Below, piece after piece: positions 806 to 37,406 of a stretch of DNA of 64,000 nt (its first letter is position 1; the number at the start of each line of letters is the position of its first letter). The stretch comes from Amphiscolops sp. MND2022 (Eukaryota), in assembly GCA_964187785.1 (NCBI GenBank), contig OZ076417.1, forward strand, positions 36,022,001 to 36,086,000. The letters run 5' to 3'. The notes beneath the pieces are model-generated. The model was not told the DNA's origin. It ran no database searches and saw only the letters and a program-made list of their open reading frames with translations. Both the position numbers and the translations under genes were made by a program.

Positions 806-2404
806 TCGACTTGATTGCAGTTTCCGATTGTTTTCAATTTCAATCCCAAAAAAGACCATGGATGGAATTTACTATTTTTTACAAGTTGCAAGTTGAAGGA
901 AGTCGCACGATAAATCTGTTTCAAATGATTAGTCGAGTTGAGAAAGTCGAACGATCAGGTTAGTGAAAATGGAAAAAAAATCCAGGTTGAGAGATATGAA
1001 TCTGAGCGTGAACATGAGACCATTGCAAAAATCTAGTCACGCAGGTCCCTTAAGAATTCCGAAATGAAACGTACAGTGACTGGGCCCATATTGGGGGTAA
1101 AGTTGATGAATATACTGTTGTTTAGAACTGCAATAACAAATTGTTTTACGAGGCAAACTCTCATAAAGACTATATTCGTGAAGCTCAGTGATTTTTAAAA
1201 GGCTCAAGGTCCTTTTCCCTCCAAGTTGTTTTCTGATTTAATTAGGTACCTAACTTTCAATGTGTCCAAACTCTGATTGCTATTTTGAAAGTCTGCTGAA
1301 CTCCCCTTTTGATAAGTAGCAGAATTGCGTTGTCTGAGATCAGATTTAGGTTGATTTCAGTGTATTTTGTGGCTGAAACCGTCCTATGGATTCCTGTGTA
1401 GTCCCTTGGACCGAAGGTCCATCTTTGGGTTTAGATCGTACTCTATTTCAACAAGACAGTGCTGGAGCTGAGGGATCAATTGCTGGTCAACTCGGAGAAT
1501 TGAAGCCAATTTTAGTTTCATCTAATTTTGTAGTTCTAAGGCAACATGCTTCTTCAAATCTTCGATTCGAAAGATTGAATTTCTCTAGTCTTGCGAACTT
1601 CCTGTCTTGATCTGAATGCGCGGGAACTTGCGGCCGGGGAGTTTCCCCGCAAGTTCCTTATTGTTTCTTGATAACTTCATTTTCGATGGACTTCTTCTCA
1701 CCCCTTTTGTAGGCTCCTAATTCTACCAGTTAATTGAATCCTGAGGATCACTTGAACTTCTTTTTGTTTTTATCTCAAGAAGAGTTAATGACTTATGGAA
1801 GTGTTTAACATCAGCAATTCACAGCTAATAAAATCCATCAAAGACGTTTGGTCCTCTTGACGACATCAATGAAAGCAGCCAATCACGTGGCGTTGATGAA
1901 TAATTGAAGAAATACGATGAATGAAAACATGCTGGAAGCTAATTAATTGAAGTAACCGGGATTTTGTTTGATCCCAGGTACTAAATTGATTAGGTGGACT
2001 TGAACTTTTTGTATTTTTTGACAGGTTCCACAGGGCAAAAAATGTATTTAACTATTATTGAGGCAATAGCCTAAGTAACGCAAGAATCCTTAAAGAACTT
2101 GTCGGTAGCCATGACTTCCATTTTAATCAATAACAATTTAGCGTTTTTTTGTATGAATAAAATCTGCAGATGTAAAGTCAGGATAGTAATACTACCAGTC
2201 AATGTTTTGAAGCTGTTCTGTTCGGCATTATATTCAAACTAGTGCTTATTGTAGATGTTTTTTGGATATGTTCCTCTGCCACTCTGTCTGAAAACTCGAG
2301 AGGACTAACCCTCAATGACATTAGAGCATTTTCCATTCTCATCTGACTTGAATATGAACAAGACACCCGCTAAGCACCGTGATATTTTCCGCCTTCTTAG
2401 TTGA

Positions 2405-2640
2405 TTATTTTAGTTACTTGACTATTTTAGTTACTAGTATCTAAAATTGTCAACTTTACGAGTTTAGTAACTAAAATCTCCAAGATCTCCATCCACTACT
2501 TGACTATTTTAGTTACTTGAAGTAACTGAAGTACTCAAGTAGTGGATGGAAATTGTGGAGATTTGGCAGAATTTAGAAAAAAAACGCAACACAGATTATT
2601 ATGATTTTCTTCCCCCATTATATGGGGGCGGAAAATCACA
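2405..2640. repeat. Small fold-back/MITE-like segment
   Basis: 16-bp perfect inverted repeat TCCATCCACTACTTGA (2488-2503) / TCAAGTAGTGGATGGA (2535-2550); direct repeat ACTTGACTATTTTAGTTACT; imperfect hairpin TGATTTTC..CCCCCAT-TAT-ATGGGGG..GAAAATCA near 2605-2639. Confidence 0.5.
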
Positions 2641-4892
2641 ATTCCGTTTCTACGTCTTGAAAATATGGTTAAGTTTGTGCTTCAAGGAGTCAAATTGCAA
2701 GCTTGATCAAGGCTTTCATTTTGACTAAAATCGCTTTCTGCACCATGAAAGGTTCCAACTAAGCGTAAACATTTTTTAAATTTGCTTTTGAAAGCCTTAA
2801 AATTGCAGTAATATGGACTTTTACTCAGGAAGTGAACTGCTTGAGTTTATATCTTTTTGTTTGGGCAAAGAAATGAGTGGCCAACCACTTCATATTCAAA
2901 TGGAAGATTTGAAACGTTCCCCCACTGATGCGACGCATGTTGAGCCGACTAAAGCTAGAGACGGATATTCAGCAATTCCTTCTGTACATCCTTTCAGCTC
3001 ATCCAGATCAAACATAGCCAACATTCCATTTGCAGGTTACCCGCTTTTTGCAGCAGTTCATCTGGTCAAAATTGAGGAATTTGCTTCACAAGGACACTGA
3101 AGTCATAGCTGGCTGAGCATGAGTCCTATCTCGAATTTGTGGTTGGAATCCCTCCAGTCAAGGGGAGTACAAGTGACACGGTCGAGATTTCACCTACATT
3201 TAATTTGCAATTCTTTCAGAGATGCCTTCTGAGTTGGTACCTGTTGTCAACTTTTCGAACTCTCGACACACTACAGCTCTTTCTACAGACCTCCGGTGGG
3301 TCAAAACTGAAAAAAGTTTAAAAAAAAATACACTTCTGGACTGGACGCCAGCTATCGTCCATATTGCAAGCGCCACGCTTCAGTTTATCCGATTGGCAAC
3401 AGCAGCATCCCTTCTTCAGGGCCACTTCAGCGATAAGGGCAGGCGTCGTGTTGTCTGTTTCATTACTGAAGCAAAGTCGTCAATTGGCTCTCACATTTTG
3501 TAAGTTGGACAGCAACGGTCAAAGCTCGCTCAGGTATTATACTCGCCAGCATAGCAGACCAACCTTCATAAAAGTAACCTTTCCAGTGTCACGTCCTCAG
3601 TTAAGCCACAGACGTCAAATAAAGACCCCGCTCCGCTTTCGAGCAGCACTGGAACCACAATTAAAAGGTTTTTCAAGGAAAGCTCTCTAATCAACGTACC
3701 GTTTTGCGACCCAACAATCACTCTAAATGGGCTCAAATAAGTCACGAGGGCCTCTCTTGAGATGTTAAAGAGTGTTGTAAATCGTGTCAGCAGGTTTCGC
3801 GTATCTAGTCCTCAGACCAACACATCGCGATTTCAGGTCCAGACTCCTGCATCCAATGCGTCCGTCCTTGACTTTGACGCAGATACTTCTCAAGGCACAC
3901 CTGACCTTTATCGTAGTAAGTCCAGTTAAGGGATCCGCAGTGACCGTGACTTTGACAGTATGGGCACTCTTATGAGTATCCACAAATCTCCACCTCTGCA
4001 GTACAACTCCCCAGCTGCTTGTTACTGTCCAGATGAGCGAGTGACAGTCCGGGAGCACAGACCCTCGCATCTTCGAAGTAAGAGGCAATTTCTGATGAAC
4101 GAAAAAGGAGTTGAAAACGCCAAAAGAAGCCCAAAGTAACCCTTCAAATGCCGTCGCTTACTCGCTCTTGCATAATTTTGAAGGAAGAGTTCTTCGAAGG
4201 GATATCCTGGATCGCACCTTTGTTTGCGGATCAATTGATCCAAAGAAGAACCCTGCAAAATCTACTACCCGCTCTGCAAAGGAAACGTGTCCATTTTCGG
4301 GCATGGAGTCAAGGAGATTCTCAGGCATCATGCCACAGAAAGACAATTTAGACGAGACCAACGGTATAGCCACTTGAATCAATCCACTTGAGGACCCTGT
4401 CATCAAATCCATGACCCATCAAGTACGAGGCAGTGATTGACACCTTACCAGCTCAAGATTGAGTTGTCAAAGTTCAAACGCCAAACTTGTCGATATTAAA
4501 GAAACGTTGCGACTCGTTGCGAAACGTTGCAATCATGGCTTGCAATGGTCACATGGCATTTACATCAGAGAACGGAGTGAGGGTCCAGATATCTTTTCTT
4601 GGGCATTTTCCACCATTTTCTGGCTACATTGCTGCACTCTGGCGATACGTAGGTGTTGTCGTCGATCAAGAATGCTTATTCGACAATAGTTACAGGATAA
4701 TTTCCGCTGGAGGGTTGATATTTCACATCAGGGTTAACATTTCAATCTAAAATTAGTAGCTAATCAAATCAGGCTGCTATTGAGCTTAAGGTGCTTTTCC
4801 ATCATTTGTGTTTGCAGCTCTAAGAAGACATTGAGACGAACATAGTGATTAGTGGATTTAATTCAATAGATTTCGAGCGGCAGATAGTCTTC

Positions 4893-6805
4893 TGTCGCGC
4901 TATGACTAACGCTCTAACAAATAGAACAGAGCTTACTAATATTGAAATAACACGTGCAAAAAGAAACAGGAAATGGAACTAACGTTGTGTGTGGGTGAAG
5001 GAATGAAGGGAATAAAAAATGGCGGCCGCCATAACGCGGTGGCCGCGAAGGTAAATTATGGAGAAGTACTGCGAAAAAAGAATTGCACAAGTGAAGAATT
5101 CTATATTATACCGCGTATATTTGAAACAAAAAGCTAGTCGTGATTGGTGGCATGCGAACCATGCTTGCTATGCGGCACTCGTGAGAAGTGCTTGGCGGTT
5201 TTTATACCGCGAACGCGGGCGAGGAGATTCATTCTTCCACAACTAACAGAGCTTCAACTTAACAGCTCTCTTCCCTCTTCTCTTCTCTTCCTCCTCGTTC
5301 CCCTTACACTTATTCTCCCTTCTTCCCCTTTTATCAGAGCTTCAACTTAAATAGCTCTTTCACACTTTCCTTTCCTTTCCTCTTCGCTTCCTTATTTCTT
5401 ACTTTCCCCCTTTCTCTCCCTTTCACTTCTGATTTCCCGCTTAGAATTAAAAGTCTATTCCTTTTCACTTCTCACTCCTTGGCTCTCATCTCAGCCAATT
5501 TCTCTCGCTTCCCTTCACTTCACTTTGTTGACATCTTTCTTAGACTAATAAAAGTCTATTTCCCTTTCTCCCCTTCCTACTAGCTCACTTTATCTTTGCA
5601 AATTCTCAGTCCCCTCAACCAGAATTTTCTGTCTCAGAAAAATTCTCTTCGACCCAACTTAGTCCTCAGTTTGGTGAGTCGAAAATTGTCTTAGATTTTT
5701 CTACGTGGAGAGATTTTTCATTCTCCCGTTTTCTAACTTAAATTTAACTTGACAAATTTCTCCGTTGATTTTACTCAACGGTTGTATGAAATTTAACTTA
5801 ACAAATTTCTCCGTTGATTTTACTCAACGGTTGTATGAAATTTAACTTAGCAAATTTCTCCGTTGATTTTACTCAACGGTTGTATGAAATTTAACTTAAC
5901 AAACTTCTCCGTTGATCTTACTCAATGGTTGTATGAAATTTAACTTAACAAATTTCAACTCCCCGTTGATTTTACTCAATGGTTGTATGAAATTTAACCT
6001 AACAAATTTCCCCGTTGATTTTACTCAATGGTTGTATGGAAATTAACTTAACAAATTTCCCCGTCGATTTTACTCAACAGTAGAGTGAGAGTTAACTTGA
6101 AAAGTATCTCAGGAAATCCTGAACTAACTTATGGGGCTATCGTTACATTAACATTTATACACAAAATCTACATTTTCTATTTTATGATTTTCACCGTCTG
6201 AAAAGTCTAAATGCTATTCTAAATTTCCCTGAATAGAGACTAAAAATAAAAACTCTGCCGTTTAAACTACTACAGATAGTAAACAATTTTGTGTGGCGCT
6301 AATTTATTTTCCAAGATAAATGGAAATTCGCCTGAATATCTTATATTTTTGATCAATTGTAATTCACCCAAAGTACAAGTAAAAGCAATATTACTTTCAC
6401 AAGGAAGTTAAACCTGAAGTAAATTGAATCAACTGTAAAATTTAACACTGGAATAAATACTGTTCAGTGTTACTTTATCTATCTTCCCCTAATGTCTCAC
6501 GTGATATAATTCAACATTTATTTCCTATTCTTTTGTGTGGAAAACAGAGCTCATTTACGCATACTGCCTTGCACCTACTCACGCAATATCTTTTGTTCGC
6601 ACGTACACGCAAGGCACTTCCTTTCTAGTATTACACAGAGTAAGCTTTGAGACTTTCTTACCCACTTCTAATCAATAATAGAATAGTCGCTTGAAAGTAC
6701 TTTGCAAAATGCTAAAGAATCAGAACTGACTAATACTGATAACAACTGAGCAGTCCCGTGAAAAGAAAAAATAGTAAATAGTAAAATTTATCCATGCGTG
6801 CGACA
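4893..6805. mobile_element. 1913-bp solo-LTR-like insertion
   Basis: Begins TGTCGC and ends GCGACA (TG..CA, 6-bp terminal inverted repeat), flanked by 4-bp target-site duplication CTTC (4889-4892, 6806-6809). Removing it restores a colinear exon (ERQIVF*FFNLRFW vs ELKGLFLFMHVRFW). Contains a CT-rich tract and a minisatellite; no long ORF. Confidence 0.8.
5740..6080. repeat. Tandem array of about 7 copies of a 49-bp unit with an internal hairpin
   Basis: Unit AAATTTAACTTAACAAATTTCTCCGTTGATTTTACTCAACGGTTGTATG; units start at 5740, 5789, 5838, 5887, 5936 (54 bp), 5990 and 6039; CCGTTGA/TCAACGG stem. Confidence 0.95.
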
Positions 6806-7527
6806 CTTCTGATTTTTTAACCTACGATTCTGGCGCGAGAACCAGCTATGTCGCGTGTTCATCCGCCGAACTGGAAGTACAGTCGGGCAAACCGCAGCTG
6901 AGCTTTGTCTAATTTCATCTTCACTTGCGGCTATCCCAACCAATCATGCCTAGTTTTGTTAGCTGTGCCGGATGTTCTCTCCATCTTCCAACTGATTGAC
7001 AAGTGTTCCTGTTTAAGCATGGAAATCAGAACCCCGTAAAATTCGAAGGAATCTGAAAAGCCAAATTTCTGCACAAACACAGCTATAGTGTTATCGGACG
7101 CATCGACTTCTCTGTGTTGATATTTTCTTGTGACAACGTTAGGAGGGAGTTTTGAATTTAAGTGGACACTCTTCCACCAGAAAATGCCAAAGTGAATATA
7201 AATACGTCTTTATGTATACCTTTATTCCAAGCCCTGAGCGGTTTCTAAACGTGCTATATCTGCATCATGTTTTTGTTACAGGCCATTGAAGACTGTACCC
7301 AACACGTTTCACGATTACCGTCACTCTACTGACAATTGCTTGAGAAATGAAGCCAAGTCATCGAGTACTTGATTAAGTGTTCCATGTGACATGAGAGGCA
7401 GGGAATCATTTGACAGGTAATTGTCTTCCAGTCCTATGAATCTTTTGTCCTGACTACAGTTCTTGAAAGCAATGGTATTTAGGTCACAGTGTCTTGAGTG
7501 GTCTATGATTGGTGATGACCTGGAACT

Positions 7528-8069
7528 CCAAGTGAATTGATCGTTTTAAGATGTAATTAGCGTTTTACATAGTCTGAGTGAACAAAAATGCCAGTACGAA
7601 AATGACCTGGAACTGTTCTTTGGACTCCAATGTGATTGTGAGCATTTTCTTATCAGATCCAAGGTCCAAAATGTCAAGTGATAACCAAGTGAATTGGTCG
7701 TTTTCAGATGTAATTAGCGTTTTACATAGTCTGAGTGAACAAAAATGCCAGTACGAAAATGACCTGGAACTGTTCTTTGGACTCCAACGTGATTGTGAGC
7801 ATTTTCTTATCAGATCCAAGGTCCAAAATGTCAAGTGATAACCAAGTGAATTGATCGTTTTCAGATGTAATTAGCGTTTTACATAGTCTGAGTGAACAAA
7901 AATGCCAGTACGAAAATGACCTGGAACTGTTCTTTGGACTCCAACGTGATTGTGAGCATTTTCTTATCAGATCCAAGGTCCAAAATGTCAAGTGATAACC
8001 AAGTGAATTGGTCGTTTTCAGATGTAATTACCGTTTTACATAGTCTGAGTGAACAAAAATGCCAGTACA
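7528..8069. repeat. 157-bp tandem repeat, about 3.4 copies
   Basis: CCAAGTGAATTG recurs at 7528, 7685, 7842 and 7999; identical ORFs 7565..7834 and 7722..7991 are offset by 157. Confidence 0.95.
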
Positions 8070-8299
8070 CCATCAAACTCGGGCGGCGTTGTGTCATTTA
8101 TGGAAGTGTACTTCGCGAGACTAATCTTCACCAGATACATATATCGGGTAGTGCCTCAATTTGCAAGCATTTAGTCTGTGTTGTATATCTACTTTATTTT
8201 AACAGTCGGTTTTAGGTCCGTTTTTGAGTTTTGCTGATAGAGTTGCAGATTTCATTAATGTGGTTCCGTTCCATGGTACATTAGAAATCCCATTTAGTA

Positions 8300-9802
8300 T
8301 TTCTAGTTGAAAACTCCTCTTTTGTGTTTCTGAAAAAAATTACATTCAAAGAAAGGATGTGCGAATATTTTTTGTTGGCTACATATACATAAAAGGGAAA
8401 GCGACTTCCGACTTTGATATTGAAAGTCTTTCAGCTTGTATTGGCCGGTGATCGTTTTCGTTAGAATCTTTACTGACGTGCGTTCAAGTGCTGTAGGAGG
8501 AGCTGCTTTTTGATGCTGTGAGAAGGTACTTCGGGTCAAGTTAGTAGGAGACGCGACTTCAACCTATTGAAAAATATTTTCTGGAATCTGTCAATGTGTA
8601 TTCTGTAGCATATTCCAGTCCGGTAACTTCAAGGTAGGGTTTATGACTCGCAATTGAGCACGAGATAGTTGATCTGTCTGTCTGATTCAGTGCTGTGAGC
8701 AGAGATCCCTCATTTTTTCGTTTTTGGGGAGAATATCCACTTGCGATTACTCAATTTTGGAGTCCATGGGGGTTATATGGCACCTACTTCCAGTTAGTCA
8801 AAGCAGTGGTTGTACCGCGATCTGCTTGCTGTAGACAAAAAACTGTATCAAAGTTGGATTTGGCGGAACCAGCTTCTTTGCTACCAAATATGGGCAAAAA
8901 ATGTCGACAAAGATCGTACAATGCTCCATTGTTGTTTCCGTGTTAGTTTGCGTCAGCTTGATTAATAAATAGACCGAGTGATTTCCAAATCAGCTTGGCT
9001 TTGACTGTAGCGTTCTCGGGTACGGAAATTTAGTTCCGCGTCAAAAGTTATGCTAAGTTCTTTTGAAGATTTTGAACATCTGATTTCATCTTCTTGAATT
9101 TTCACGCCTTTCACAAACTAGTCATTTTTTTGATATTCAACGACGGGAAACTCCGTTTTGCTGCTGAAAGTTTTTGTGAGGCATGCATCAATTTTGTTGC
9201 AATCTTTGTCAAATTTGCTTCTTCCGCAGTCTCCATTGCTGTGGCGATTGAAGCGTCATCGTGTTCAAAAGGTTTACTGACACAGTCGTTGATTATGTCT
9301 CCGCAGAAATTATGAATAACAATAGTGACAGTACACTGCCTTGTGGCAGACTTACGTTCAGCATGTAAACTTCGGATTTCTAATCGTCGATCTTTATGAT
9401 AACTTATCGTTCATGTAGGACGAATTTTATAGTATCAAAGAATTTCACTGACACGTCGTCTTTCAAAAACTTATACAACAATCTCTCTAAGCATATTGAA
9501 TCAAAGATTCCTCCAGATCTATAAAAAGTGCGATTGTGCAACAATTCATATCTTTGTACGACTTCAAGTAGTCGCCTAGTGTGTATTTGTAACGACCGGT
9601 GGTTTTTTCAACTGAAACTCTTTTGTTCATCATGGAGTAGCATGGCTGATTCCAAATGGTTTGGTATTCAATTCTCTAGGTTTCTTTCGTACAGTTTAGC
9701 ACGTATGATTTGGAGGTAAATGGTCTATAGCTGCTAGCTTACTTGTAATCAATTTCATTAGCTTTCCGCAGGAAAACTACTCACTATTCTTCCCGATGTA
9801 TT
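8300..9802 (-). mobile_element. Degenerate non-LTR retrotransposon (LINE) reverse-transcriptase remnant
   Basis: Minus-strand translation with stops and frameshifts gives SYRPF (domain 1-like), ALFIDLEES (cf. ALFIDLxKAFDS), FEHDDAS (decayed YADD) and KELSITFDAELNF (cf. KxLGITFDxxLxF). Cut at 9802 by the Gypsy LTR. Confidence 0.7.
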
Positions 9803-10993
9803 TGGGGTTAGAGGGAATACGCTCTAGTCGTGTTGACGTGCTGTCAACAACTATATTTAATCTCAAGTGCTATTAACACTAAGTACCAGTACAGTGCTAC
9901 AGTCATTTTGACGTTTGGCCACAAACCATCTATATTTGACAAACAGTACCTACTTAGTTATTTAGTGCAGTCAATCTGACATTAGGTCAACATGTCATTT
10001 CATGCAATACCTTAGTATAGTTATCACGACGTAATGTAGTATTGCGTACATGTAACCACTAGTGCTACCAGTTATTGATATAACCCTTTCTAGTGCTATT
10101 TATAGTTGATGATGTAATATGACGTCATGTCTGCGCTTAGTTATTTATAGTATTATGACATCATTTGTATTTTATTACCATGACACCCCAAATAATGAGT
10201 GTCATGGTCCCCCAACTATATATACAAGGAGTCCGATGTTTAAAGGATCACTTTGTTGATATTGAAACGCTATATACAACCTCTTTGATTTGATTTGATT
10301 AATTGCAAAATTCACTGTTAGAAACGTTCAATCTTCTTGTCATGCCTTCTACCAGGAAGCAAAAGGCCAAAGAGAAACGTTCTAGACAATCTGACGTGAT
10401 GTCAGATATTGAAAACCTCGATGTAATGTTAGGAGCTTACTCGAGAAATGATTTAGTTGAGGATGAGAATAATACAGAACCTGAAGTAGACTTAGAATCA
10501 GGTAGACACCAGCGGAGTGAAGGCCAAACTGAAAATAACTTTAGGTCATTATTGAACACTAACCCGAGTGAAAATAGTGAGGTTACTGTAGAAACTAACA
10601 GGCTAATCAATTCAGAAATTTCTTCCCAAATGTCTCGAAAACTTGAGGAATTGAAAACAGACTTGAATTCTCATATACTTGATGTGATTAACTCCGCATT
10701 AGAGGAAAGAGTGCTTCCAAGCATCAAAAACGCTCTGGAAACCAAGAATTCAGCTAAAAACGTGAATTTGGACCTTCGGTCAGATGGACTGCATTCGAAT
10801 GATTTCAGCCAAGAACAGGCCCAAAGGGACCTAAGGTCATATGGACGGCATCTGGAAAATCCAACCCAAAGGTTTCAGGATGCCCAAAATGACTTCCCTA
10901 GGCTAGAATCGATGAGGAATAACCGTACAAATCATTGTAGAAGGAATTCAATAGATTCCAACAATAGTAATGAAAATGATGATGGTTATGACA
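9803..10993 (+). repeat. 5' LTR
   Basis: Matches 24443-25633 except 9890 T/C, 9974 A/G and 10704 G/A (by eye). Starts TGGGG and ends TGACA, followed directly by TGG. TATA-like TATATATA at ~10217; TGACGTCA (CRE-like) at 10120. Confidence 0.93.
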
Positions 10994-12141
10994 TGGTGAC
11001 AGGAGCCAACCTTACCCCACAAATGGTCCCTGAATTTCTGACCGGACGTCCCACGCAGTCCCGAAATACCAATCCCCATCAACAGTGTGTCAATGATGAC
11101 ACACTAGATAATACCCTACCGGCGCAAATACCGTCAGTCCCTATTAACAACCAGAGGCAACACTCTGAAACACCCCTAGACCCCATTAACCGCCTTGCAG
11201 ACGTAATTATAGGAATGAACAACAAATCTTCTGCACAAACACTGATGGTACGCCCAGTCAATACCGCCACTCTGACATTTGATGGGAAATCCGAAAAATT
11301 TGAACTGTTTGAAGATCTTTTTCACACGATGATAAAGATGCAACCGGACATGACGGAAACAATGAAAATTAATCACTTTCATTCACTGTTGCGCAAAAAT
11401 GCGCTCCAGACCTTCCGTAACATTAGTTCAGCAAACAGACAAACATTGGACGACATACTGGCTGTCTTTCGCCGCAAATATGTCAAACCTGAATCTCAGG
11501 CAACTGCCAAACACAAATGGCACAAACTCGTATTCAACCCGAATACAATGAAATTGCCTGATTTTCTTGAAGAACTCAATCAGGGTGCCGAAAAAGCCTT
11601 TGGCGAACACGCGCAAGCAATGATCGACAGTCTGCTCTATGCCAAACTTCCACCAAAACTCAAACGTTCTGTCAACATGGCGCGATTAGAAAACGCGACC
11701 TATGAAGAAATTGTCACTCACCTAGAACGTGAATTAGAATTAAATGGCCTTGAGGAAGGTGACGACATTCCCGTTCCCACAATGTCCACTGCCCCAACGA
11801 CGACACGTCCGGGACAAGGCCTCCTTTCGTCAGGGATTGACACAGGAACGACATGCAACTACTGCAAAAAACCTGGACACGTCAAAGATGAATGCCGAAA
11901 ACTCAAAAGAAAGGAGGAACAAAAACGCAATGAAGGCCAAAGTACCAAAAAAGAGTACCCAAAGTGCCCAACTTGTGACAAAACGAACCACCCGGCGGAG
12001 CGGTGTTGGAAAGGCGCAGGAGCCCACCTCAAGCCCAAAAACCTCAAATTAGACAACTCTACCTCCGACGACATAACCGCAAGTCATGACGACTCCAATA
12101 ATAAGACAACTACTTCTATCCTTAAAAACTCAAAAAACTAG
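10342..12141 (+). CDS. gag: Gag (599 aa from ATG 10342; first 217 codons lie inside the LTR)
   Basis: Open frame; capsid-like FDGKSEKFELFEDLF; zinc knuckles CNYCKKPGHVKDEC and CPTCDKTNHPAERC. A second in-frame ATG at 10993 spans the LTR/PBS junction. Confidence 0.9.
   Translation: MPSTRKQKAKEKRSRQSDVMSDIENLDVMLGAYSRNDLVEDENNTEPEVDLESGRHQRSEGQTENNFRSLLNTNPSENSEVTVETNRLINSEISSQMSRKLEELKTDLNSHILDVINSALEERVLPSIKNALETKNSAKNVNLDLRSDGLHSNDFSQEQAQRDLRSYGRHLENPTQRFQDAQNDFPRLESMRNNRTNHCRRNSIDSNNSNENDDGYDMVTGANLTPQMVPEFLTGRPTQSRNTNPHQQCVNDDTLDNTLPAQIPSVPINNQRQHSETPLDPINRLADVIIGMNNKSSAQTLMVRPVNTATLTFDGKSEKFELFEDLFHTMIKMQPDMTETMKINHFHSLLRKNALQTFRNISSANRQTLDDILAVFRRKYVKPESQATAKHKWHKLVFNPNTMKLPDFLEELNQGAEKAFGEHAQAMIDSLLYAKLPPKLKRSVNMARLENATYEEIVTHLERELELNGLEEGDDIPVPTMSTAPTTTRPGQGLLSSGIDTGTTCNYCKKPGHVKDECRKLKRKEEQKRNEGQSTKKEYPKCPTCDKTNHPAERCWKGAGAHLKPKNLKLDNSTSDDITASHDDSNNKTTTSILKNSKN
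10994..11005 (+). other. Putative primer-binding site TGGTGACAGGAG
   Basis: Starts with TGG immediately after the LTR CA. 11 of 12 bases match the complement of the 3' end of vertebrate tRNA-Leu(CAG), TGGTGTCAGGAG, as recalled from memory; the host tRNA was not checked. Confidence 0.65.
12132..12138 (+). other. -1 ribosomal frameshift slippery heptamer A AAA AAC
   Basis: Directly precedes the gag TAG (12139-12141). The -1 frame is open from 12126 through the whole of pol. Canonical X XXY YYZ pattern. Confidence 0.8.
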
Positions 12142-15100
12142 ATTCGCCACGGCTCTATATTAATGAAAAACTACGAGTCAGACAATACATCATATCTGAC
12201 CCTTCCACTATATACTATACTGAATACTATTCTTCGCTAAAAGAAAATTCATCTGCTGACTGGCAGCAGCAGGTGTCAAACACCCCTATTAGCCTACTTG
12301 ACTTGGACCATCAGTCCAACAGACTCCACTGTAATACTAGTACTACCCGGCCCCTACCCCTCATAAATGACTATAATCCCTATTACCTTGACCCAGATTT
12401 TGGTTTCGACCCTTATTGGGACATTCAGCTCTACAACCAACATCATCTTCATTTCTACAACAATTACCATAAGAATCCCATGGAAATTGAACTTGATTCA
12501 TATGACATCGACCGAACCCTCAATTTAACCCTGACCAAAGCTCTCGTAGATCCCTGGCAATATAATCGCACCACCACAACTTTACCAATTCCAGAAGAAT
12601 CAATAACCAAACCTTCCGAAGAAGGACCTATGGTCATGCTGACTGCAGCCGTTGAAGAACGCTTTGTGAACACGCTTATCTCAAGAGCCGGTGAACCCGA
12701 TTACGTCCCTCTAACGACAAATTTGGGACTCAAATATAAACGACGCATGCTCTACTTTCCAATGGATTTCGGCGAACTAACTTTAGATGGCCTTGTAGAC
12801 ACGGGAGCATTATCGAGCGCAATCCCAGAAGCTGATCTACGTAAAATCCGACTATTAGCCCCTCAGTCAATCATCAAAGAGGGCCCAGCTCCTAACTTCC
12901 AAATTATGGTAGCTAATGGACAGCTGGAAACTCCCAAGAGCACTGTCGAACTCAAATTCGAGGTCGGGGACATCGATTTTCACGAGATTTTCATAGTCAT
13001 GGAGAAACTCACAAGTCCATTAATTGGCCTTTCGTTCCTTCAACGAAACAATACCATACTTGACATGAGACAGGGAGTCCTAAACTTTCCGTTCTTTTCC
13101 ATGCAATTAAAAACCGCGGACCACAAATACACTAATGTCATGGAACCAATTTGCACCCGGGAGGATATCACTATCCCTCCCAATGATAGACATATGGTAT
13201 CCATGTGCTCACAAATGTACGAGGATACAACCGTCACTGGAATTCTTCAACCGAGCAATGACCTCGCGGAAGATGGTGATATAACCTTCTGCGCCGCTCT
13301 AGTCACACTGACCCAAGGTCAAGCATCAATTCATGTGAACAATTTCACCGATCAGCCTTACACCCTCAAACGAGGTTCCCACATCGCCAATTTCTCTGTA
13401 CTAACTCCAGAACAGTTGAAATACGTCAAACCTATCGACCCTGTGACCACTTGGCATCTTCTACAGGATAATCCTGAAAATGCCGTTTATTATGCCAGTA
13501 GTCTGATTAAATCTCCGAAAGCCGAAGACAACAGCGAAAACTATTGGTTTCCTACTCCAGAGCAACCAGGAGATCCTCAGACGCATACCCCAATACAACA
13601 AAGAATTCTCAAAGAATTGCGAAACTTGCAAGAACTAGAGAAACTCAACCCCCAGGATGACCTGGAGTCTAGAAAACAGTTTCTCGCCAACTTTGACTGG
13701 GCAGACTCGACGTTGAACCCAACTGAAATTGCCCAAATCGAAGAGCTTCTTGTCGAATTCCACGACATTTTTGCACGACACCGCTTTGACATAGGGATGA
13801 ACGAGGACTTCAAGGTAAAATTAACCCCTAAAGACGACTCCCCTGCCTACAGTCAAAGCTTGCCTACACCCATCAATCTCAAAGAGGACATCCTCGTCGA
13901 ATTAGCCCTTCTACACAGATATGGGATCATAACAACGCTTCCGTTTTCCAAATATGCAAGCCCCATTTTTGCTCAGAAGAAACCAAATGGCAAACTACGA
14001 CTCCTGGTCGACCTCCGGAAGATCAATAATTTGATCTCTGATGATTACATCAACAATAATCACCCTGTCAGCACACTAACGGACGCTGCCCAACATATGG
14101 CAGGCAAACGATTATTCTGCAAATTGGATTGCTCTCAAGCATATCACTGCCTTCAGATGGCAGACCAGAGGTCAATTGAGATGTTAGCCTTCAACTTTGC
14201 TAGCAGAACCTTTGCCTATCGCAGACTTGCGCAAGGTCTAAGCAGAGCCCTATCCGCCTTTTCGAGCTTTATGCGCGAATACCTGGACAAGGTGATTAAA
14301 GCGGATCAATGCGCACAGTACGTAGATGATATTGGAATCGCAGCCAACAACGCGACACAACTTATCAACAACCTACGAGCGACCTTTGAGTGCATCAGAA
14401 CCGCTGGTCTCAAATTGACAATGCATAAATGTCACTTCGGAGCCAAAGAAATTGACTTCCTGGGACGCACCATCACCCCTGAAGGAAGGAGGCCACAACG
14501 ACCCAGGGTCCAAAACTTCCTAGAGAAAACGAAATTTCCAAAATCCAAAAAAGCACTTCAACGATACTTGGGCTTCCTGAACTACTACCGCAACTACATT
14601 CCAAGACTTTCAGAAAAATTGACCCCCTTTTTCAAATTATTGAAAAATGATGCTAAAGTCATGGTGACGCCCGATCTGTTAGAACAATTCACCGAGATCA
14701 ACAAAGCTCTTGACCGATGTTGTGAACTTGCGCTCAAACAACCCCTGCCTAATAAACAAATAGCTCTAATGACAGATGCTAGTTTTTCGGCAGCAGGTTA
14801 TGCAGTTCTCATCGAGGACGATCCAATGGAAAAATATTCATCGACGCGGAAAGCCTTCGCACCTGTAGCATATGGATCCAAGACCTTTAGTCCCGCACAA
14901 CTGAAAATGTCCATCTACGCCAAAGAGTTCTTAGCAATATTCTTTGCCTTCAAGGAATTTGGACATATCTTTTGGGGGACTCCGCAACCGGTGATCATTC
15001 TGACAGACAACAAGTCGGTCACTCGCTTTTTTCAGACTAAAATAATTCCACCTACCCTGTGGAACGCGTGTGACTACGTTATTCAGTTCAATTTCACAAT

Positions 15101-17306
15101 CGCTCATATTCCTGGCAAAAATAACACCGCCGCAGACTATCTGTCTCGTCTAGAAATCTGCCCTAAAGAGAAACTCATACTCCGCATACGGGAAGACATA
15201 TCGACAACGCCCATCGAACTAAATGTGCAATCCGCCGGAGTCACTGAAGAGGACCAGATATTCTACACTGACGATAATGAAGAAACTGAAGAACAGATAT
15301 GGCAACGGAAGAAAGACGCCAGGTCAAACCCGACAAATCAATTACCTGACATCACCCTAGGAAAACTCAGTGCCCACACCACTGTCTTTTCACATCAAAC
15401 AACTTTACAAAGACTATCAAACCCCACCACCATGGCTATTGAACAACAAAATGATGTGGTATTGCACCAGTTACGTCTCAAACTGCAGAAAGAAGAATAT
15501 TCGGAGACGATCCTTAAACAAGATTCGCGCTACAGACATTACTGCAGTCAAATTGACCGTCTGTCCGTCCAGGACGACGTCGTCCTTAGAGACTATTATG
15601 ACGAAACAGGAAGCGTCCAATATCGTCAGGCGCTTTTACCCAAACACCTCGTGTCAGAATTACTCCAATCACTGCATGGGACAGCACATAAACATCCGGG
15701 AATTTCCAAGATGCTTTATGAAATCCGTCAAAAATATTACTACCCTGGAATTGCAAAAATTGTCAAAAAGTGGGTCCAAGGATGTGAAACATGCATTAAA
15801 GATAAACGAATCAAAAACCCATCAATAACACCTGAACTTCTTAATTTGCCTGAATGGGATCTTGGCCCGGAAGACGCATTACAAATTGATCTTCTACCTA
15901 ACCTCCCACCAAGCGGGGGATATGAAAATGTTATTACTGCCCTGGATGTCTTTTCAAGATACCTGTTCGCTTACCCTGTAGCCGACGCATCGGCCTCCAC
16001 TACCGCAAAAGTACTTATTGATATCATGACAAGGCATGCATATTTGCCAACAACTTTGATCACTGACAAAGGAACTGCCTTTACGTCTCGTCTAGTCGAT
16101 GAAGTCACAAAGATCCTAGGTATCCAGATCAAATGTGCAACAACGAAACATCCTCAGACAATAGGTAAATTAGAGAGAACTCATGCAAGTCTTAAAGGCA
16201 ATCTTAAAATGGCTTCGGGTGAATACCGGCGCCAATGGCACAAATATTTACCATTGGCTGTTCTCAATTACAACACAACCTATCATTCCAGTCTAGGATG
16301 TGAACCATCCAGAATTTTTCACGGTAGAGTGCCTTACAACATCCTAGACCACAGGTTGGGATTAAATCCCAACCCGAAAATCCTACCATCAATGGATTTT
16401 GCTGAAGAACTACAAAGACGTACCCAAATTTTGATTGATAGAACAAAGAAAAATATCATGCAGTCGTACTTAAAATACAAGGAATATTATGACCGAAAAG
16501 CTAAAGCAGCCCCGTTACACCAGGGAGATTATTGCTTTATATTACAGCCGTTAGCCGACAATCAAGGATCCAAAATTCCATTCCGTGAATTCAGGTGGAT
16601 TGGACCGTACGTCATTGAAAAGGTCCTACCGAATGAAAACTACATTGTCCGAAAACTCAGCTCTAACAAAACGCAAATTTTACACAGGATACGCTTGCGG
16701 AAATACGTTCCAAATACGGAATTATGTGATGTGCGACCAGAAGGAAATTTACAAGCTGATGATGAAATTATTATACCTCAAGACGACCTTTATATTATCT
16801 CGTGGGAGACTGAATTTGCCGAGTTTCCCCCTCATCTTGATACAGGAGACACTCCTGATGATTTTCCGATGAATTCTGACCAACCAGATGCTATAAACAC
16901 GGATTTGGACCTTCGGTCCACTAGACGTGACGCCAATTCTAACGACAACGCCGCTACACCGCGCGAGCACCAAAATAGCGATATTGACTCAAGGTCAACC
17001 GGACCGAACAAAGATACTGACTCAGCCGTCACCGAGCAGCCGGCTGAAAATTCACCTGACATGGACCTTAGGTCAAACCGACCACAATCAACTACAGATC
17101 CAGAAATAGAAGAAATGCCTTTCAAAAGCCCATCGGAAATGCCAAACTCCGATTTTTCAAACTCTAGCGGGAAGAATATTTCCGTGCCCGATTTATTAGA
17201 AAGAGAAGATGACGAAAAGGTTGTAGAAAATGAAAGCCCCAGGGGAGGCAAATATAATCTACGTCCCAACCCTACTCCAAACTTTACTGATGAATACAGA
17301 TACTAA
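12132..17306 (+). CDS. pol: Pol polyprotein (protease, RT, RNase H, integrase), probably expressed as a Gag-Pol fusion
   Basis: Protease LVDTGALSS; RT LVDLRKIN, KLDCSQAY, YVDD; RNase H TDAS, EFLAI, TDNKS, AADYLSR; integrase HGTAHKH..CETC, QIDL, TDKG, LERTH; GPY motif; C-terminal YNLRP. No chromodomain seen. Confidence 0.97.
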   Translation, partial: KKLDSPRLYINEKLRVRQYIISDPSTIYYTEYYSSLKENSSADWQQQVSNTPISLLDLDHQSNRLHCNTSTTRPLPLINDYNPYYLDPDFGFDPYWDIQLYNQHHLHFYNNYHKNPMEIELDSYDIDRTLNLTLTKALVDPWQYNRTTTTLPIPEESITKPSEEGPMVMLTAAVEERFVNTLISRAGEPDYVPLTTNLGLKYKRRMLYFPMDFGELTLDGLVDTGALSSAIPEADLRKIRLLAPQSIIKEGPAPNFQIMVANGQLETPKSTVELKFEVGDIDFHEIFIVMEKLTSPLIGLSFLQRNNTILDMRQGVLNFPFFSMQLKTADHKYTNVMEPICTREDITIPPNDRHMVSMCSQMYEDTTVTGILQPSNDLAEDGDITFCAALVTLTQGQASIHVNNFTDQPYTLKRGSHIANFSVLTPEQLKYVKPIDPVTTWHLLQDNPENAVYYASSLIKSPKAEDNSENYWFPTPEQPGDPQTHTPIQQRILKELRNLQELEKLNPQDDLESRKQFLANFDWADSTLNPTEIAQIEELLVEFHDIFARHRFDIGMNEDFKVKLTPKDDSPAYSQSLPTPINLKEDILVELALLHRYGIITTLPFSKYASPIFAQKKPNGKLRLLVDLRKINNLISDDYINNNHPVSTLTDAAQHMAGKRLFCKLDCSQAYHCLQMADQRSIEMLAFNFASRTFAYRRLAQGLSRALSAFSSFMREYLDKVIKADQCAQYVDDIGIAANNATQLINNLRATFECIRTAGLKLTMHKCHFGAKEIDFLGRTITPEGRRPQRPRVQNFLEKTKFPKSKKALQRYLGFLNYYRNYIPRLSEKLTPFFKLLKNDAKVMVTPDLLEQFTEINKALDRCCELALKQPLPNKQIALMTDASFSAAGYAVLIEDDPMEKYSSTRKAFAPVAYGSKTFSPAQLKMSIYAKEFLAIFFAFKEFGHIFWGTPQPVIILTDNKSVTRFFQTKIIPPTLWNACDYVIQFNFTIAHIPGKNNTAADYLSRLEICPKEKLILRIREDISTTPIELNVQSAGVTEEDQIFYTDDNEETEEQIWQRKKDARSNPTNQLPDITLGKLSAHTTVFSHQTTLQRLSNPTTMAIEQQNDVVLHQLRLKLQKEEYSETILKQDSRYRHYCSQIDRLSVQDDVVLRDYYDETGSVQYRQALLPKHLVSELLQSLHGTAHKHPGISKMLYEIRQKYYYPGIAKIVKKWVQGCETCIKDKRIKNPSITPELLNLPEWDLGPEDALQIDLLPNLPPSGGYENVITALDVFSRYLFAYPVADASASTTAKVLIDIMTRHAYLPTTLITDKGTAFTSRLVDEVTKILGIQIKCATTKHPQTIGKLERTHASLKGNLKMASGEYRRQWHKYLPLAVLNYNTTYHSSLGCEPSRIFHGRVPYNILDHRLGLNPNPKILPSMDFAEELQRRTQILIDRTKKNIMQSYLKYKEYYDRKAKAAPLHQGDYCFILQPLADNQGSKIPFREFRWIGPYVIEKVLPNENYIVRKLSSNKTQILHRIRLRKYVPNTELCDVRPEGNLQADDEIIIPQDDLYIISWETEFAEFPPHLDTGDTPDDFPMNSDQPDAINTDLDLRSTRRDANSNDNAATPREHQNSDIDSRSTGPNKDTDSAVTEQPAENSPDMDLRSNRPQSTTDPEIEEMPFKSPSEMPNSDFSNSSGKNISVPDLLEREDDEKVVENESPRGGKYNLRPNPTPNFTDEYRY

Positions 17307-17496
17307 CCAGACATGTAAATTAAACTCTTTATAATGACCACTCTACGAGGCCCAGACTAACAGTACGTCTTCTGGACTGAATGAAATGGTATCAGTAAAG
17401 GAACGAAATACGAATGAAAGCAATGACATAAAACACCCACACAGAATAAATAGACAAATGTACAAACTAAAGAATGCAATTGTACATAATGTACAA

Positions 17497-20400
17497 TTAG
17501 AGTTTAGAACTACTAGGGGTCAACAAGGCTTTAGCTGACGAAATCATTTCCTTATCGGGTGACTGCTGATTGGGTCGCTTGCTGCTCTTTTTGGGAGACG
17601 ACTTGGACGCTCCGGAAGCCTTACTGCTCCCTGCAACTTTACCGACAGCAATGCTGACTGAGGGCTTGGGTCTGCTAATATCAGAAGTTAGCTGTTCAAG
17701 AATCTTCGAACGTCCAAAGAAGTCAACGCTGTCCCAGGGGCAATAAGTATCGCTCATTCCACCATCAATAAAATCAGGCTCCAGACGAAGGAAATCAGAT
17801 ACGGATTGATCGGTAGTAACAGCCTCAATACTGTGGGGTACATTAGCAAAATAAGATTGAACAGGTAAAATTACATCAATATGACTGCTAGTCGGGTTGT
17901 CAGAATCAACTGATCCAAATTTCACGCTGGGTAAAACAGGAAAAGGCTCATCGAGGCACAGGCACGCCAAACGAAACAGCTTGAAGAGCAAAGGTCGACT
18001 ATGCAGGATAGGCAATTCAACAAGAAATTTGACTGTATCAGGTATCAGTAAAGTAGGCTGCGCCAGGTCAGAGTAAGTACGCCTCAGATCATCCACAAAT
18101 GACAGGTATTCTTCACCACTCGCAGTCTCTTGTTCCATAGTAAAATGGCCCCGCAGTCGGAAACTAGTAAACAACTGGGTGTGACAGTAAGTTGCGTGTG
18201 CTATGGGTCCAAGCAGGATGATTTCCAAGTCAAAGCAACCCAAGCCTTTAACGAGGTCATTAGTTAGCCCCTTCAGTCCTTGGAACGAATTAAATAAAAA
18301 GGTGACGTAACTGCGTGCTGCCCTTCCAAACTCTTCTTTATTCTTGTCAGACAGTGCATCGATGGATAGACCTGCGTTGCATTTTTCCAATTTGTCGTAT
18401 CCAGCTTTGATCTTGCAAGCTGCGTCTAACTTAGAACCAAACTTGGCTCGAGAAAGGAAATTCTTGACACTGAGTGCAGTTGTAGTTCCCAAGTCCAAGT
18501 CGAGGATTTCAGGCCAATTTTCCTCTGGAGGCAAATCTTTTGGCGAAGAACATCGTCGCGCAAGTTTGAATAGAAATTGGCAAAGTTGACGGTAGGTGTA
18601 AAATGACCTATCTCTTCGGCCCGACAGACTGAGCGAAAAGGCATTAGCATCTAAACGAACCTAGGAATCAGTTTGAAGAGACCAAATAACGATGAAAGGA
18701 AAGAAAGGAGCACTAACAATCCCGTGTTAATCGTTGGAACAATCCTAGTCGACAAGTGAAAAGTTCATCTCCAATGATCGACCATTCCAAATTCTGCGGC
18801 TAGAAGCAAGAGACATATTACAGCTACGAAGGGATTTGAGTATTTGACCAAAAGTCAGTTTGACCAAATTCCTACCTGATTATGCACCCCTTGCATCTGT
18901 TGCTTGAGCGAATACGTAGTAAGAAACTCTACAATTGACTTCCAATTCTTCATCAATTCCTGACAGAGGATATGCAGTTTAGAGACGTCCAGCTGACATG
19001 TTCTAATCGCCTACAAATAACACAGTCATTTAGGCCTAGTCTTAGTCATGGAAACCCAAAAACAATGCAAGACTCTAACCTTAGATAACTCAGGGGATAG
19101 CAAGACGCACTCCATGTCCAATCTGCCGCCAAGTGAGACAACTAAGTACTTTAGGGTGGAAAAGAAGTCAATTCGTCCAAATACAGAATAATTGTCCTTG
19201 TGCATCAACTTAGCTAGTGACACCTCGTCGAATCGCTTGAAGCTCTGAACTCCCAATGTAAATAGAGGACTCTCGTCTAATTCTTGGACAAAATCGAGCG
19301 AACATCCACTAGCACAAACTGGACTGGGACGCGTTGAGATAGCGCCCAAGAGGCTGGAGAAAAGATGTTTTTCAGCTTGGGTTTGTCCGCCAGTCCGCCC
19401 TGTCCTTTTCAAGACAACACGACACAGTTGGTTGTCTCGCCAGAAACGCACGTGCATAAAGAGGAATAGGCCTTTCAACTCAAACTCAACGGCAAACTGT
19501 CCTTCAGCCACAATGTATTGCCCAAGGTCATCCAACAATCGCACGAATATGTGATGGAACAGGACCTGAAAACACAAATCCAACATACTAACAAGGGGAT
19601 TTGAAACGTAACAGCAAGTCAGGATAACGGTAGGGCTAAGTATGACCTAACTCATGAAAGGTATCAATATATTGGATGGTCTAGTCAATTAGACACTGAG
19701 TCGCAAATTATTTTATGAAGACTTACTGAGAGGCGTTCTTTTCCCCAGTTGAAGTCAGAGAACAAAGCCTGGTGGTTGACGACTACTCCAATATCCTTCC
19801 ACAAACTGCGTAAAGACCTAATGTCACCGAAGTTAGGAAGAAAGTGGCCCAAGATCGAGATCTGTACGCGAACTCTGTTTTCAGAGGACGACGTCATGTG
19901 GGTATTCCCTGCCATAGCCTCATCGTAGAATGGCAGTTTCTCTCCGATGTCAACGAGAGTCACATCCTTGAATTTGGGATATTCAAGTTCCAATTCGTAC
20001 GGTGTCAAGAGTTTACCATTCTCGTCTCTGACGTAGTGACGAATCGTCTTGGTGACTGGATCCTCCACAGACAGGTGTTCGTACCGCCATCGTTGGTCTC
20101 TACGAAGGTGGCGCTCCGTTCCGTGATGTCTAAGAATTTCCTTGACGCCCCTGCCATAGATGGACACGTTCCCCTTACAAATTTGACAGTAAAATTTATA
20201 GGGGTTCCACTTAGGATCCATTGGTCCGGTAACAAAAGTTCTTGCCCAGCTTATTCCTTCAAATAGCTCTTCTCGCATCACCTTGTTAGACCTCCACACG
20301 GGTTTCTTTTTCTTTGATTTAGTAGCGGTGGGACGCTTGGAACCCTTTTTCTTTTTGGTTTTGGTCACTGCAGCTTCACGTTTCAACTCAGCCAAGGTCT

Positions 20401-21730
20401 GTGCTCCTGGACTGTCAGCGGTTTTCTCCAAGGCAGGGGACCGAAGGTCATTTCGACTGCACCCAGGTACTGGGGGACTTGGAATGTTGATCTCCGATGC
20501 CCGACTGGGAGTTTGCTCGCGAGAATGATCGGTGGTCCAAAAGTCACTTTGACCAGATGGGGTCCTGTGACGGAACGTATACCGGTCAGTTTCTGAATCT
20601 GTACCAGTTGATTGGACTGACTTTGGCCGATGCATACTTTTGGCGGAATGAGGACTTTGGTTCAAGTTGAGTTGACTCGCCTTCTGTATGAGACTGTTCA
20701 TCATCCCAAAGGTCGATTTTGCTGTCTCGTCAGCAACCACTTTCAGCATTTGGCACATCTGTTCCTGGTTAAAGGCGACAGTCGGGTGCCCTTGTGGTAG
20801 ACTTATGGGATTTGTTTCAGCAAAACACTTGCGAATTATCTCCCTACTGCTGATTGAGATAGGTGCTTCTCTAAATGCTGCTACGGGTGCCTGTATGGTT
20901 GACTCATAGTCAGACCCATCGCTATTACAAGTGAGGTACTGAGTCTTGGGGGGTGCTAATGCTTCTGCTAACGTTGACCGAGCGTAACGGGTAGAGTCAT
21001 GGTCACTTAAGAACGGAACTTCAGTCTCACTGCCCGATTGTGTCTCAGCTAAGTGACGTTCGTGTGGTTCTAAGGACGTAGAGTCAAGTTGACAGGATTC
21101 ATTCTCATTCCGGATGGACTTGTGTTTCACTGCTGGGGCAAATGTAAACTCATACGTGTCAATAACCTCGCTTGGCTCAATGTGCTTGACATCAGGGTTG
21201 TTGACCGCGCTGATGTATTTGGATAGGGAAAGAGGCTGTGTTTGCTTTGAAGAAGCCTGGCCATCGGGACTACAATTAGGCCGCATGACAATTGGTTCGC
21301 TTTCACTCTGTTTGACCTTGCCATTGGTCTTGGGTGTAACTTCAGGTTGCCCAGACTGTTCCATCTCGTCTAGTTTCCTTGTCACATACGCTCCAAAACT
21401 CTCATCAGAACCAGTGCTGCTATTACTAGTAAATCCGCTTCTCCTTCGAATTTCAGCAAATATCTGCGCTTCTTCAGACTCAGGCTCAGTTTTCATCAAC
21501 GTGACTGGGGGTAGAGCAGACTCAATGTCTGTGCACTCAGGACTGGATAAAGTGATCTCGATTACCTCAATCTCATCACTTGAAGTTTCTTCAACTGCTT
21601 CTCTACGAACCAAGCTAGGAGAGCTCGTGTCCATTTTTTCTTCCATATCTTGAGCTGGTTGGCCAGTTGTTTCATTTTCTAAACGAAAGGAAATGAATAA
21701 TCGCGGTTCGCTTCCTGCAAAAATATCCAT
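17497..21730 (-). CDS. Antisense five-exon gene: zinc-finger, probable catalytically inactive hAT-transposase derivative (~1286 aa)
   Basis: Exons 21730-19727, 19565-19080, 19010-18876, 18799 (or 18793)-18718 and 18650-17497. Introns of 161, 69, 76 (or 82) and 67 bp are all GT-AG with matching phases (0,0,0,1) and give one open frame. CxxC..H..H finger at 20188-20108. The start codon is uncertain (21730 or 21646). Matching junctions are present in the paralog at 3650-8092. Confidence 0.85.
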
Positions 21731-24275: not shown

Positions 24276-24442
24276 AAACTGGAACAACCCATTTACAATG
24301 TTAATTACAATTTTACATGTATTCGTTGATTTTAGTAGTATTTAGTAAATAGCCTGACCATGAAATCTGATATTCTACTGTTTGGACTTAAGGTCAAACT
24401 GACCGCATCAATATACTCACAGTATTCACTTGACGCCTGATA

Positions 24443-37185: not shown

Positions 37186-37406
37186 GCTACACCTGTTGGA
37201 GTAACAGAAAGTTCTGTTTCACACTTGCCCGCAAATAGAGCTTCATTTTAGAATTTATTTATATATAATGTTAGAATATTGCAGTGCTTTCTTTCAAAGC
37301 GTTTTTTCACACTGAGTGTAATTTATGTTTTTTCTTTCTAGTTTTGTTGCCAATACGACATATCTCACAAGCTGCTCTTTTACCAGATTCATTGTCAAAT
37401 TCTGAT

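Follow-up and report, generated by a model that had tools for sequence, protein, structure and literature searches.

A decayed spliced gene beside its intact relative

A window of 64,000 nucleotides from the genome of Amphiscolops sp. MND2022 (assembly GCA_964187785.1, contig OZ076417.1, positions 36,022,001 to 36,086,000 of the forward strand; the coordinates below count from its first letter) carries on its + strand the decayed homolog of a spliced gene, an intact relative of which is found antisense in a young Gypsy element at 9798..25633 (+). Taking together the anatomy of the two copies, a survey of the gene across the genome and structure models of its product, we conclude that the decayed copy represents a four-intron accessory gene carried antisense by Gypsy elements between pol and the 3' long terminal repeat (LTR), and we consider it probable that its protein, likely a hAT transposase in origin and probably catalytically dead, would act as a sequence-specific DNA-binding regulator of its own element.

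The young element displays the hallmarks of a Ty3/Gypsy LTR retrotransposon, namely paired LTRs (1190 of 1194 positions identical) and the domain order protease (PR), reverse transcriptase (RT), RNase H (RH) and integrase (INT). On the + strand it encodes gag (10342-12141), a pol gene with the arrangement PR-dUTPase-RT-RH-INT (12126-17306; the dUTPase match is weak) and an open reading frame (ORF), ORF6 (23448-24275), that overlaps the start of the full 3' LTR (24184-25633). The 5' LTR (9798-10993) is shortened and lacks approximately the first 250 bases of the family copies, which accounts for the missing target duplication. On the minus strand, the intact antisense gene (17497..21730) comprises five exons (21730-19727, 19565-19080, 19010-18876, 18799-18718 and 18650-17497) separated by GT-AG introns in phases 0, 0, 0 and 1, with an open spliced frame of 1286 amino acids. 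ORF6 stands head to head with this gene; it shows 26-58% identity across elements of the lineage termed M below and has no Pfam family. About 217 gag codons lie inside the LTR (10342-10993, 24982-25633), and the gag frame continues past the end of the LTR through a TGGT sequence that resembles a primer site, as it does in relatives from lineages M and D. Right after the 3' LTR, at 25635-26250, lies a decayed canonical hAT transposase fragment in frame with the gag piece of the LTR; relatives carry PF04937.

The decayed gene starts at an ATG at 2813 (MDFYSGSE versus MDIFAGSE) and ends at 28276, with exon 5 resuming past the young element; hence the preliminary description was right to recognize a decayed + strand relative with conserved introns, but its span of 3650-8092 was too short for a gene reaching from 2813 to about 28280. 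It aligns to a relative, L067, with 48% identity over 433 residues (9 stops, 10 frameshifts) and, in a second stretch, with 44% over 126 residues (1 stop, 2 frameshifts). As a DNA search of the genome gave five other matches, at 68-70%, no close sister of this copy was seen. A 5' leader region (2640..2812), which over 2640-2907 is 64-66% identical to four intact elements, precedes exon 1 (2813..4713), where a low-complexity N-terminus and a BED-like zinc finger (approximately 4250-4360) are recognizable among many stops and frameshifts and where the 3' end is uncertain. Intron 1 (4714..4790) retains an exact acceptor, AAG/GTG CTT TTC CAT CAT (VLFHH; the slash marks the junction) at 4791; its donor, for which 4714 and 4733 are candidates, is lost, in agreement with the earlier statement that it could not be identified. 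Exon 2 survives in two pieces, 4791..4892 (VLFHH..., placed by homology and splice-blind) and 6810..7191, which sum to 484 nt against a modal length of 486. It is followed by a phase-0 GT-AG intron 2 of 90 nt (7192..7281, from spliced alignment), whose GT donor at 7192 had been noted before, and by exon 3 (7282..7416), which has the AG/GT flanks and the 135-nt length previously described, the latter also found in 43 of 44 relatives. Intron 3 (7417..7482, phase 0) has an exact donor, but its acceptor is off register by a single base. The segment from exon 4 through intron 4 into exon 5 (7483..8095, from spliced and splice-blind placement) is caught in an array at 7528-8068. This array holds 3.4 copies of a 157-bp unit that runs from the last part of exon 4 across intron 4 to the first part of exon 5; intron 4 is accordingly present in triplicate, at 70 nt each (7638-7707, 7795-7864 and 7952-8021), with the phase-1 donor GAT T/GTGAGC and the acceptor AG/AT at 8021/8022 just as first reported. 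The remainder of exon 5 (27894..28276; tblastn E 2e-17) follows a loss of about 160 codons between the two exon-5 pieces.

For formal placement of these junctions we used a spliced protein-to-DNA aligner written for this analysis, which recovers the structure of the intact antisense gene exactly, and ran it on the decayed copy with 24 four-junction queries. Intron 2 was put at the homologous junction by 16 of the 24 and intron 4 by 20, whereas intron 1 was so placed by one query and intron 3 by none; the first reading of homologous junctions is not overturned by this alignment. Since this aligner favors GT/AG, exon ends were also placed splice-blind, using 14-residue exon ends with signals ignored. 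Four of the eight ends fell exactly on a splice site (AG at 4791, AG at 7282, GT at 7417 and GT at 7638/7795/7952), two missed by a single base (donor 2, acceptor 3) and two were unplaced (donor 1, exon-5 start). By a hand calculation from local frequencies of GT (5.7%) and AG (5.2%), the chance of at least four exact ends among eight is about 5e-4. A 1.9-kb gap in exon 2, which the aligner scored as an intron, was rejected as such, being really a solo LTR.

This solo LTR (4893..6805, +), which splits exon 2, belongs to another LTR family; it is 1.9 kb long, is bounded by TG..CA and a 4-bp CTTC target duplication, and holds a 49-bp array. Of the 40 genome matches scored for it, most begin at its first base, 4893, and many come in pairs about 16 kb apart. 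Exon 5 was invaded by an old LINE-like (long interspersed nuclear element) insertion on the minus strand, of which one piece (8179..9798, 68-74% identical to L073) is collinear with the other (26397..27875, 70% over 1533 nt); the order of the two halves follows that of L073, and the young Gypsy element separates them. The first contains a PQGSVLS motif that we take to be RT-like. Upstream, three segments (1263-1433, 1816-1912 and 2640-2887) are 66-70% identical to the L048 locus and represent what is left of the 3' LTR and leader that belonged to the decayed element itself. The LTR remnant (1263..1670, minus strand; 67% over 172 nt to the region upstream of L048, E 3e-16) includes a gag-N-terminus-like stretch, for which two of three gag N-terminal queries scored 60 versus shuffle maxima of 52-54; the segment at 1816..1912 (+) is a conserved non-coding remnant between LTR and gene (70% to the L048 region, E 4e-8). 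As a carrier, the decayed element thus keeps just an LTR remnant: no pol remnant of it was found within the window, and no ORF6 was detected in 765-2800, where three ORF6 queries scored at shuffle level. The divergent minus-strand ORF at 439-805, initially read as mirroring the ORF6 layout, lies instead in the LTR of an unrelated Gypsy element, whose TG-starting LTR end occupies 1-764 (84-85% to L171, an element with an RT 27% identical to that of the window's). The stop-free minus-strand frames of this region are 405-785 and 439-759; the window's ORF6 scored no better than shuffles against it, and three ORF6 queries on 1-900 gave one marginal 29-residue match (48 versus a shuffle maximum of 44). 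We infer that the decayed copy was disabled later by point damage and nested insertions. The fossil alone is a case of ordinary decay, and its interest is as a pointer to an unusual system.

Carriers, introns and apparent cassette exchange

We then searched the genome with exon peptides, scoring the best 105-150 of 1,600-7,800 candidates per query, and examined 97 loci that were hand-picked across identity classes rather than drawn at random, a choice that tempers the conclusions below. RT, RH and INT lie downstream on the opposite strand in 83 of these gene-bearing loci, a count that is not a share of all Gypsy elements, and on the same strand in none. The gene therefore occupies the aORF-3R-type position (antisense accessory ORF), antisense to pol, and the suggestion that its homologs might be mostly independent of Gypsy elements finds no support in the sample. 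Among the other 14 loci, ten show gag, integrase or LTR remnants and four (L081, L084, L096 and L189) are in a DNA transposon, so that every one of the 97 sampled copies is in, or at remnants of, a mobile element; the copies examined are bounded by LTRs or by the terminal inverted repeats (TIRs) of the DNA transposon.

Three deep Gypsy lineages, M, D and E, appear in the gene tree and the pol tree alike. Relative to the element in the window, lineage D is about 85% identical in RT and 58% in integrase, and lineage E 59-68% and 43%, respectively. Lineage M has all four introns exactly in 44 of 52 loci (the truncated L068 and L084 left out), lineage D has introns 1, 3 and 4 in 9/9 loci, and lineage E introns 1, 2 and 4 in 14/14. 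In one alignment, at about 25% protein identity or less, these junctions share columns and phases across the lineages, with intron 1 being one column apart beside a gap; exon lengths of 486, 135 and 82 nt recur in 37 of 44 relatives. Lineages D and E also have apparent extra upstream introns, and N-terminal "introns" that vary from copy to copy in many homologs were set aside as alignment artefacts of length variation. Among 20 further lineage-M loci, 11 have all four introns, four are decayed with shifted calls, and five precisely lack intron 3, their codons being contiguous without stops or frameshifts; these five fall in two clades, one of them sister to an intron-bearing copy. Such precise loss indirectly suggests splicing of the antisense RNA and its reverse transcription. 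Many copies of the gene are broken, including the decayed one in the window.

That copy groups within lineage M, on a long branch beside the subclade of the window element (Shimodaira-Hasegawa-like approximate likelihood ratio test, SH-aLRT, 86-88). As it belongs to the same lineage as the intact element, it is by itself no proof of age; the earlier view of an old, maintained gene rather than a one-off capture is borne out by lineages D and E instead. Their shared introns likewise sustain the notion of maintenance across distinct element families, with the caveat that cassette and pol histories are partly separate.

Synonymous divergence (dS) of the gene was measurable in 10 of 39 pairs, for which the ratio of nonsynonymous to synonymous divergence (dN/dS) is 0.03-0.17; the other 29 pairs are saturated, and open frames are kept across this saturated divergence. 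These values show that the gene is under purifying selection and hence that its protein is of use to the element. Fast adaptive evolution finds no support as the cause of the high divergence, dS being saturated and dN/dS low. Seven of the 39 pairs combine a saturated gene dS with a pol dS as low as 0.10-0.25, and many deeply diverged cassette types sit on nearly one pol. On these comparisons the cassette is often older than the pol it adjoins, which points to recombination, and cassettes appear to have been swapped between near-identical pol genes.

The second carrier is a DNA transposon, represented by gene copies A and B in elements of 35-38 kb with CCCCAG TIRs and 2-bp target duplications (4/4 copies with both ends). 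It encodes a Tnp2-type transposase (DUF1258, E 4e-9; Transposase_21 and DUF4218 below cut-off) and, with its TIRs and short target duplication, fits the EnSpm/CMC group. Among the matches listed, approximately nine A-type copies share 97-100% of their exon-2 sequence. The tree interleaves A and B with Gypsy-borne copies and makes each of them sister to such copies (SH-aLRT 98-99), a placement that would call for at least two exchanges, in one direction or the other. The A element contains 17 exact copies of an 88-bp repeat motif, in arrays; a piece of this repeat is present just downstream of the gene in 9/9 Gypsy-borne members of the clade tested and in 0/6 other elements. As a hypothesis, the 88-bp unit might be a binding site of the protein. 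A 35-kb EnSpm-like element (L123:3191-8212, L105; G000:C2, approximately 29.30-29.33 Mb) also has weak SET-domain ORFs (E 0.015 and 0.075) and a stretch that we take to be BEN-like, content that could possibly constitute a chromatin toolkit. The termini of the carrier are CC, unlike the CA given as usual for EnSpm/CMC in the part of PMC12730594 consulted. We tentatively speculate, while considering it the less likely course, that a disarmed hAT transposase became a tradable intron-bearing cassette, comprising the gene and the 88-bp putative binding-site unit, which would move between Gypsy and giant EnSpm-like elements, serve each family as its own anti-silencing switch, and gain and lose introns inside the retroelement.

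Public collections hold 469 related exon-5 clusters. Two of these, used as queries, reach just 32% and 40% in this genome, and for this reason the family probably extends to other species. Several clusters cross introns 3 or 4 gap-free and could be transcripts or intron-less genes. Three distant public relatives (P0116, P0126 and P0149), on contigs of 5-13 kb, read through the positions of both introns 3 and 4.

Affinities of the antisense protein

The protein consists of an acidic Ser/Pro-rich N-terminus, a zinc finger, an RNase H-like core, a helical domain and a Ser/Lys-rich tail, with the zinc ligands C515, C518, H535 and H541 conserved in 67-69 of 74 rows. Structures were modeled exon by exon, for exons 2 and 5. 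The exon-2 model (predicted local distance difference test score, pLDDT, 72) adopts an RNase H-like fold; its top five Foldseek rows are all Hermes (E 0.004-0.018), and in a VIA search its residues 1-109 superpose on Hermes 153-264 (Z 6.4, root-mean-square deviation (rmsd) 2.9, 101 aligned). The exon-5 model (pLDDT 82) matches Hermes 367-609 over its residues 1-272 (Z 5.4, rmsd 6.3, 172 aligned) at rank 1 of 48,161. These independent models are collinear on Hermes, downstream of the CxxC..H..H finger, and thereby reproduce, with modest scores, the hAT layout of an RNase H-like core followed by helical and C-terminal regions. Based on these models the antisense gene is very likely to be hAT-derived.

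Several results pull the other way. The Foldseek search with exon 2 gave no match at E<=0.001 and its fold scores are modest; VIA, given the exon-2 model, ranks Hermes eighth, level with actin-like and other RNase H folds; and exon 5 has no Foldseek match. At the sequence level, Pfam yielded no hAT family and nothing above cut-off for the antisense protein (zf-BED reaches E 0.095, below cut-off, for one E-lineage protein), a PDB profile search found no hAT link, and hhalign comparisons with the canonical hAT fragments of the genome remained at shuffle level (17 versus maxima of 18-20). As to catalysis, lineage M keeps E695 in 49/52 and D1136/E1137 in 36/52 loci, and catalytic positions were mapped by offset rather than by residue-level superposition. 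Beyond these, PF04195 (Retand TRP28/Transposase_28) has no match in the antisense protein, the ESM Atlas returned low-score unnamed matches only, and longer-protein searches gave no match, which is weak evidence.

Neither a DDE signature nor any of CxxH, RW and SERxFS, the motifs of hAT transposases, is conserved in the antisense protein; these motifs are present in the resident hAT fragments of the genome, where canonical hAT remnants are common (68 matches). The catalytic residues of Hermes are D180, D248 and E572, according to the portion of PMC2533014 consulted. At the approximate equivalents of these positions no acidic column is common to M, D and E, and the second Asp position is S, G or C in lineage M. 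The antisense protein therefore fails as an active hAT transposase, and from its sequence the hAT-like protein is likely catalytically dead.

No tRNA gene was found in the window. A decayed element at 29100-35730, which has a 1.9-kb internal duplication, is presumably BEL/Pao-like, judging from its motifs. At 37400-39500 is an approximately 980-bp tandem duplication with minus-strand ORFs that we take to resemble the C-terminal part of JmjC. An ORF at 40993-42339 has FLYWCH, MULE transposase and C-terminal RING finger matches near or below cut-off, and two adjacent ORFs at 46560-49012 would appear to resemble a KH plus 2H-phosphoesterase (ASCC1-like) gene.

A candidate regulator and its alternatives

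We posit that a hAT gene entered an ancestral Gypsy element in reverse orientation. Its introns would read CT..AC on the genomic RNA and, because this orientation hides them from the spliceosome, would escape splicing and survive every round of reverse transcription. The gene's own spliced mRNA might occasionally recombine back, causing precise intron loss, while template switching would swap the cassette between elements. The protein itself would bind element DNA and keep the element transcribed or unsilenced. There is precedent for non-catalytic transposase derivatives acting as regulators in the part of a recent preprint consulted (bioRxiv 10.64898/2026.08.24.746577). That the gene is kept in a carrier with different integration machinery makes the integrase a less likely target of the protein than DNA or chromatin. 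Expression, splicing and DNA binding are predicted features, the present data would fit targeting as well as regulation, and the regulatory role is put as probable.

A protein of the same origin could alternatively act at integration, tethering or steering the integration complex to chosen chromatin or aiding nuclear entry. A transposase scaffold with a zinc finger and a Ser/Lys-rich tail would suit such a role, and nuclear import has been discussed for plant antisense ORFs (PMC7264820, in part); nevertheless, the swapping of cassettes between near-identical integrases and the maintenance of an open gene in a DNA transposon that encodes an unrelated transposase make it unlikely. Less probable still is a function in conflicts between elements, wherein the dead transposase would block rival hAT or Gypsy elements or mark self, so that many cassette types coexist. 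The array of deeply diverged cassette types on almost one pol and the abundance of canonical hAT remnants would be in keeping with this, but dN/dS is low where measurable, and divergence from the resident hATs is beyond profile detection, and thus it seems improbable that the two share binding sites or form mixed oligomers.

Given that RNase H-like folds are common and that a sequence-level hAT link is missing, the gene might even have been captured from the host, or encode an RNase H-fold protein that does not descend from hAT; we regard this as improbable in view of the two independent models, which align collinearly with Hermes 153-264 and 367-609 and are preceded, as in hAT, by a zinc finger, and of the confinement of all 97 sampled copies to mobile elements or their remnants. 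Least plausible of all is that the gene hitch-hikes passively or has an effect solely through its antisense RNA, a notion that the many broken copies, that of the window among them, might encourage, but that is already contradicted by the selection data, the recurrent exon lengths and the open frames described above. We therefore favor the regulator of its own element over these alternatives.

The interval from pol to the 3' LTR is known to hold antisense ORFs (aORF-3R) in Retand (TRP28/Transposase_28, PF04195), maize Grande, rice RIRE2 and fungal Boty, and the origin of most is called unknown in the portions consulted of PMC7264820 and PMC11963269. The gene described here resembles them in position, orientation, conservation in most copies and a proposed nuclear or regulatory role; it differs in being spliced, in its length of 1286 amino acids, and in having a structural hAT link in place of PF04195, and the word "intron" is absent from the text of either paper as far as it was covered. 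Like Hermes (PDB 8edg, 4d1q), its product has a zinc finger, an RNase H-like core and a helical region in this order, but it has no conserved DDE, and in the copies examined the gene rides inside LTR and EnSpm-like elements rather than between hAT ends (TIRs with an 8-bp target duplication), for which no aimed search was made. Spm TnpA and VANDAL VANC are transposon-encoded regulators (bioRxiv 10.64898/2026.08.24.746577, in part), comparable as non-catalytic accessory factors of mobile elements, TnpA being transposase-derived; here too, the DNA-transposon carrier has repeat arrays that are possible binding sites. Yet TnpA derives from the element's own transposase in plants, whereas here a foreign hAT-type scaffold resides mainly in a retrotransposon (a word not used in the consulted part of that preprint), with an activity that is predicted. 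The sharing of one accessory gene by unrelated vehicles recalls the ORF3 that rotifer LTR elements, which also have a dUTPase, hold in common with Penelope-like elements (PMC5408684) and the TET/JBP genes that have moved among lineages of fungal DNA transposons (PMC12730594); a dUTPase between PR and RT, as in the element of the window, is a further parallel (PMC6431247). In the parts of these sources consulted, the exchanges do not cross from retroelements to DNA transposons or back, while here an LTR retrotransposon and a DNA transposon have the gene in common, and its introns are intact. A literature search, covering few subscription journals and no supplements, turned up no LTR element described as bearing a spliced antisense gene of hAT descent.

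Antisense ORFs so placed, and the sharing of ORFs among retroelements or among DNA transposons, are thus already known; what stands out here is a spliced version, likely hAT-derived, and its presence in both a class I and a class II element. In this case structure points to a DNA transposase as the likely origin of an antisense gene, and spliceosomal introns have been kept through reverse transcription. This one genome would allow tests of what antisense ORFs do, of intron loss via a spliced-RNA intermediate, for which independent precise losses are visible, and of whether transposase-derived anti-silencing factors operate in retrotransposons outside plants.

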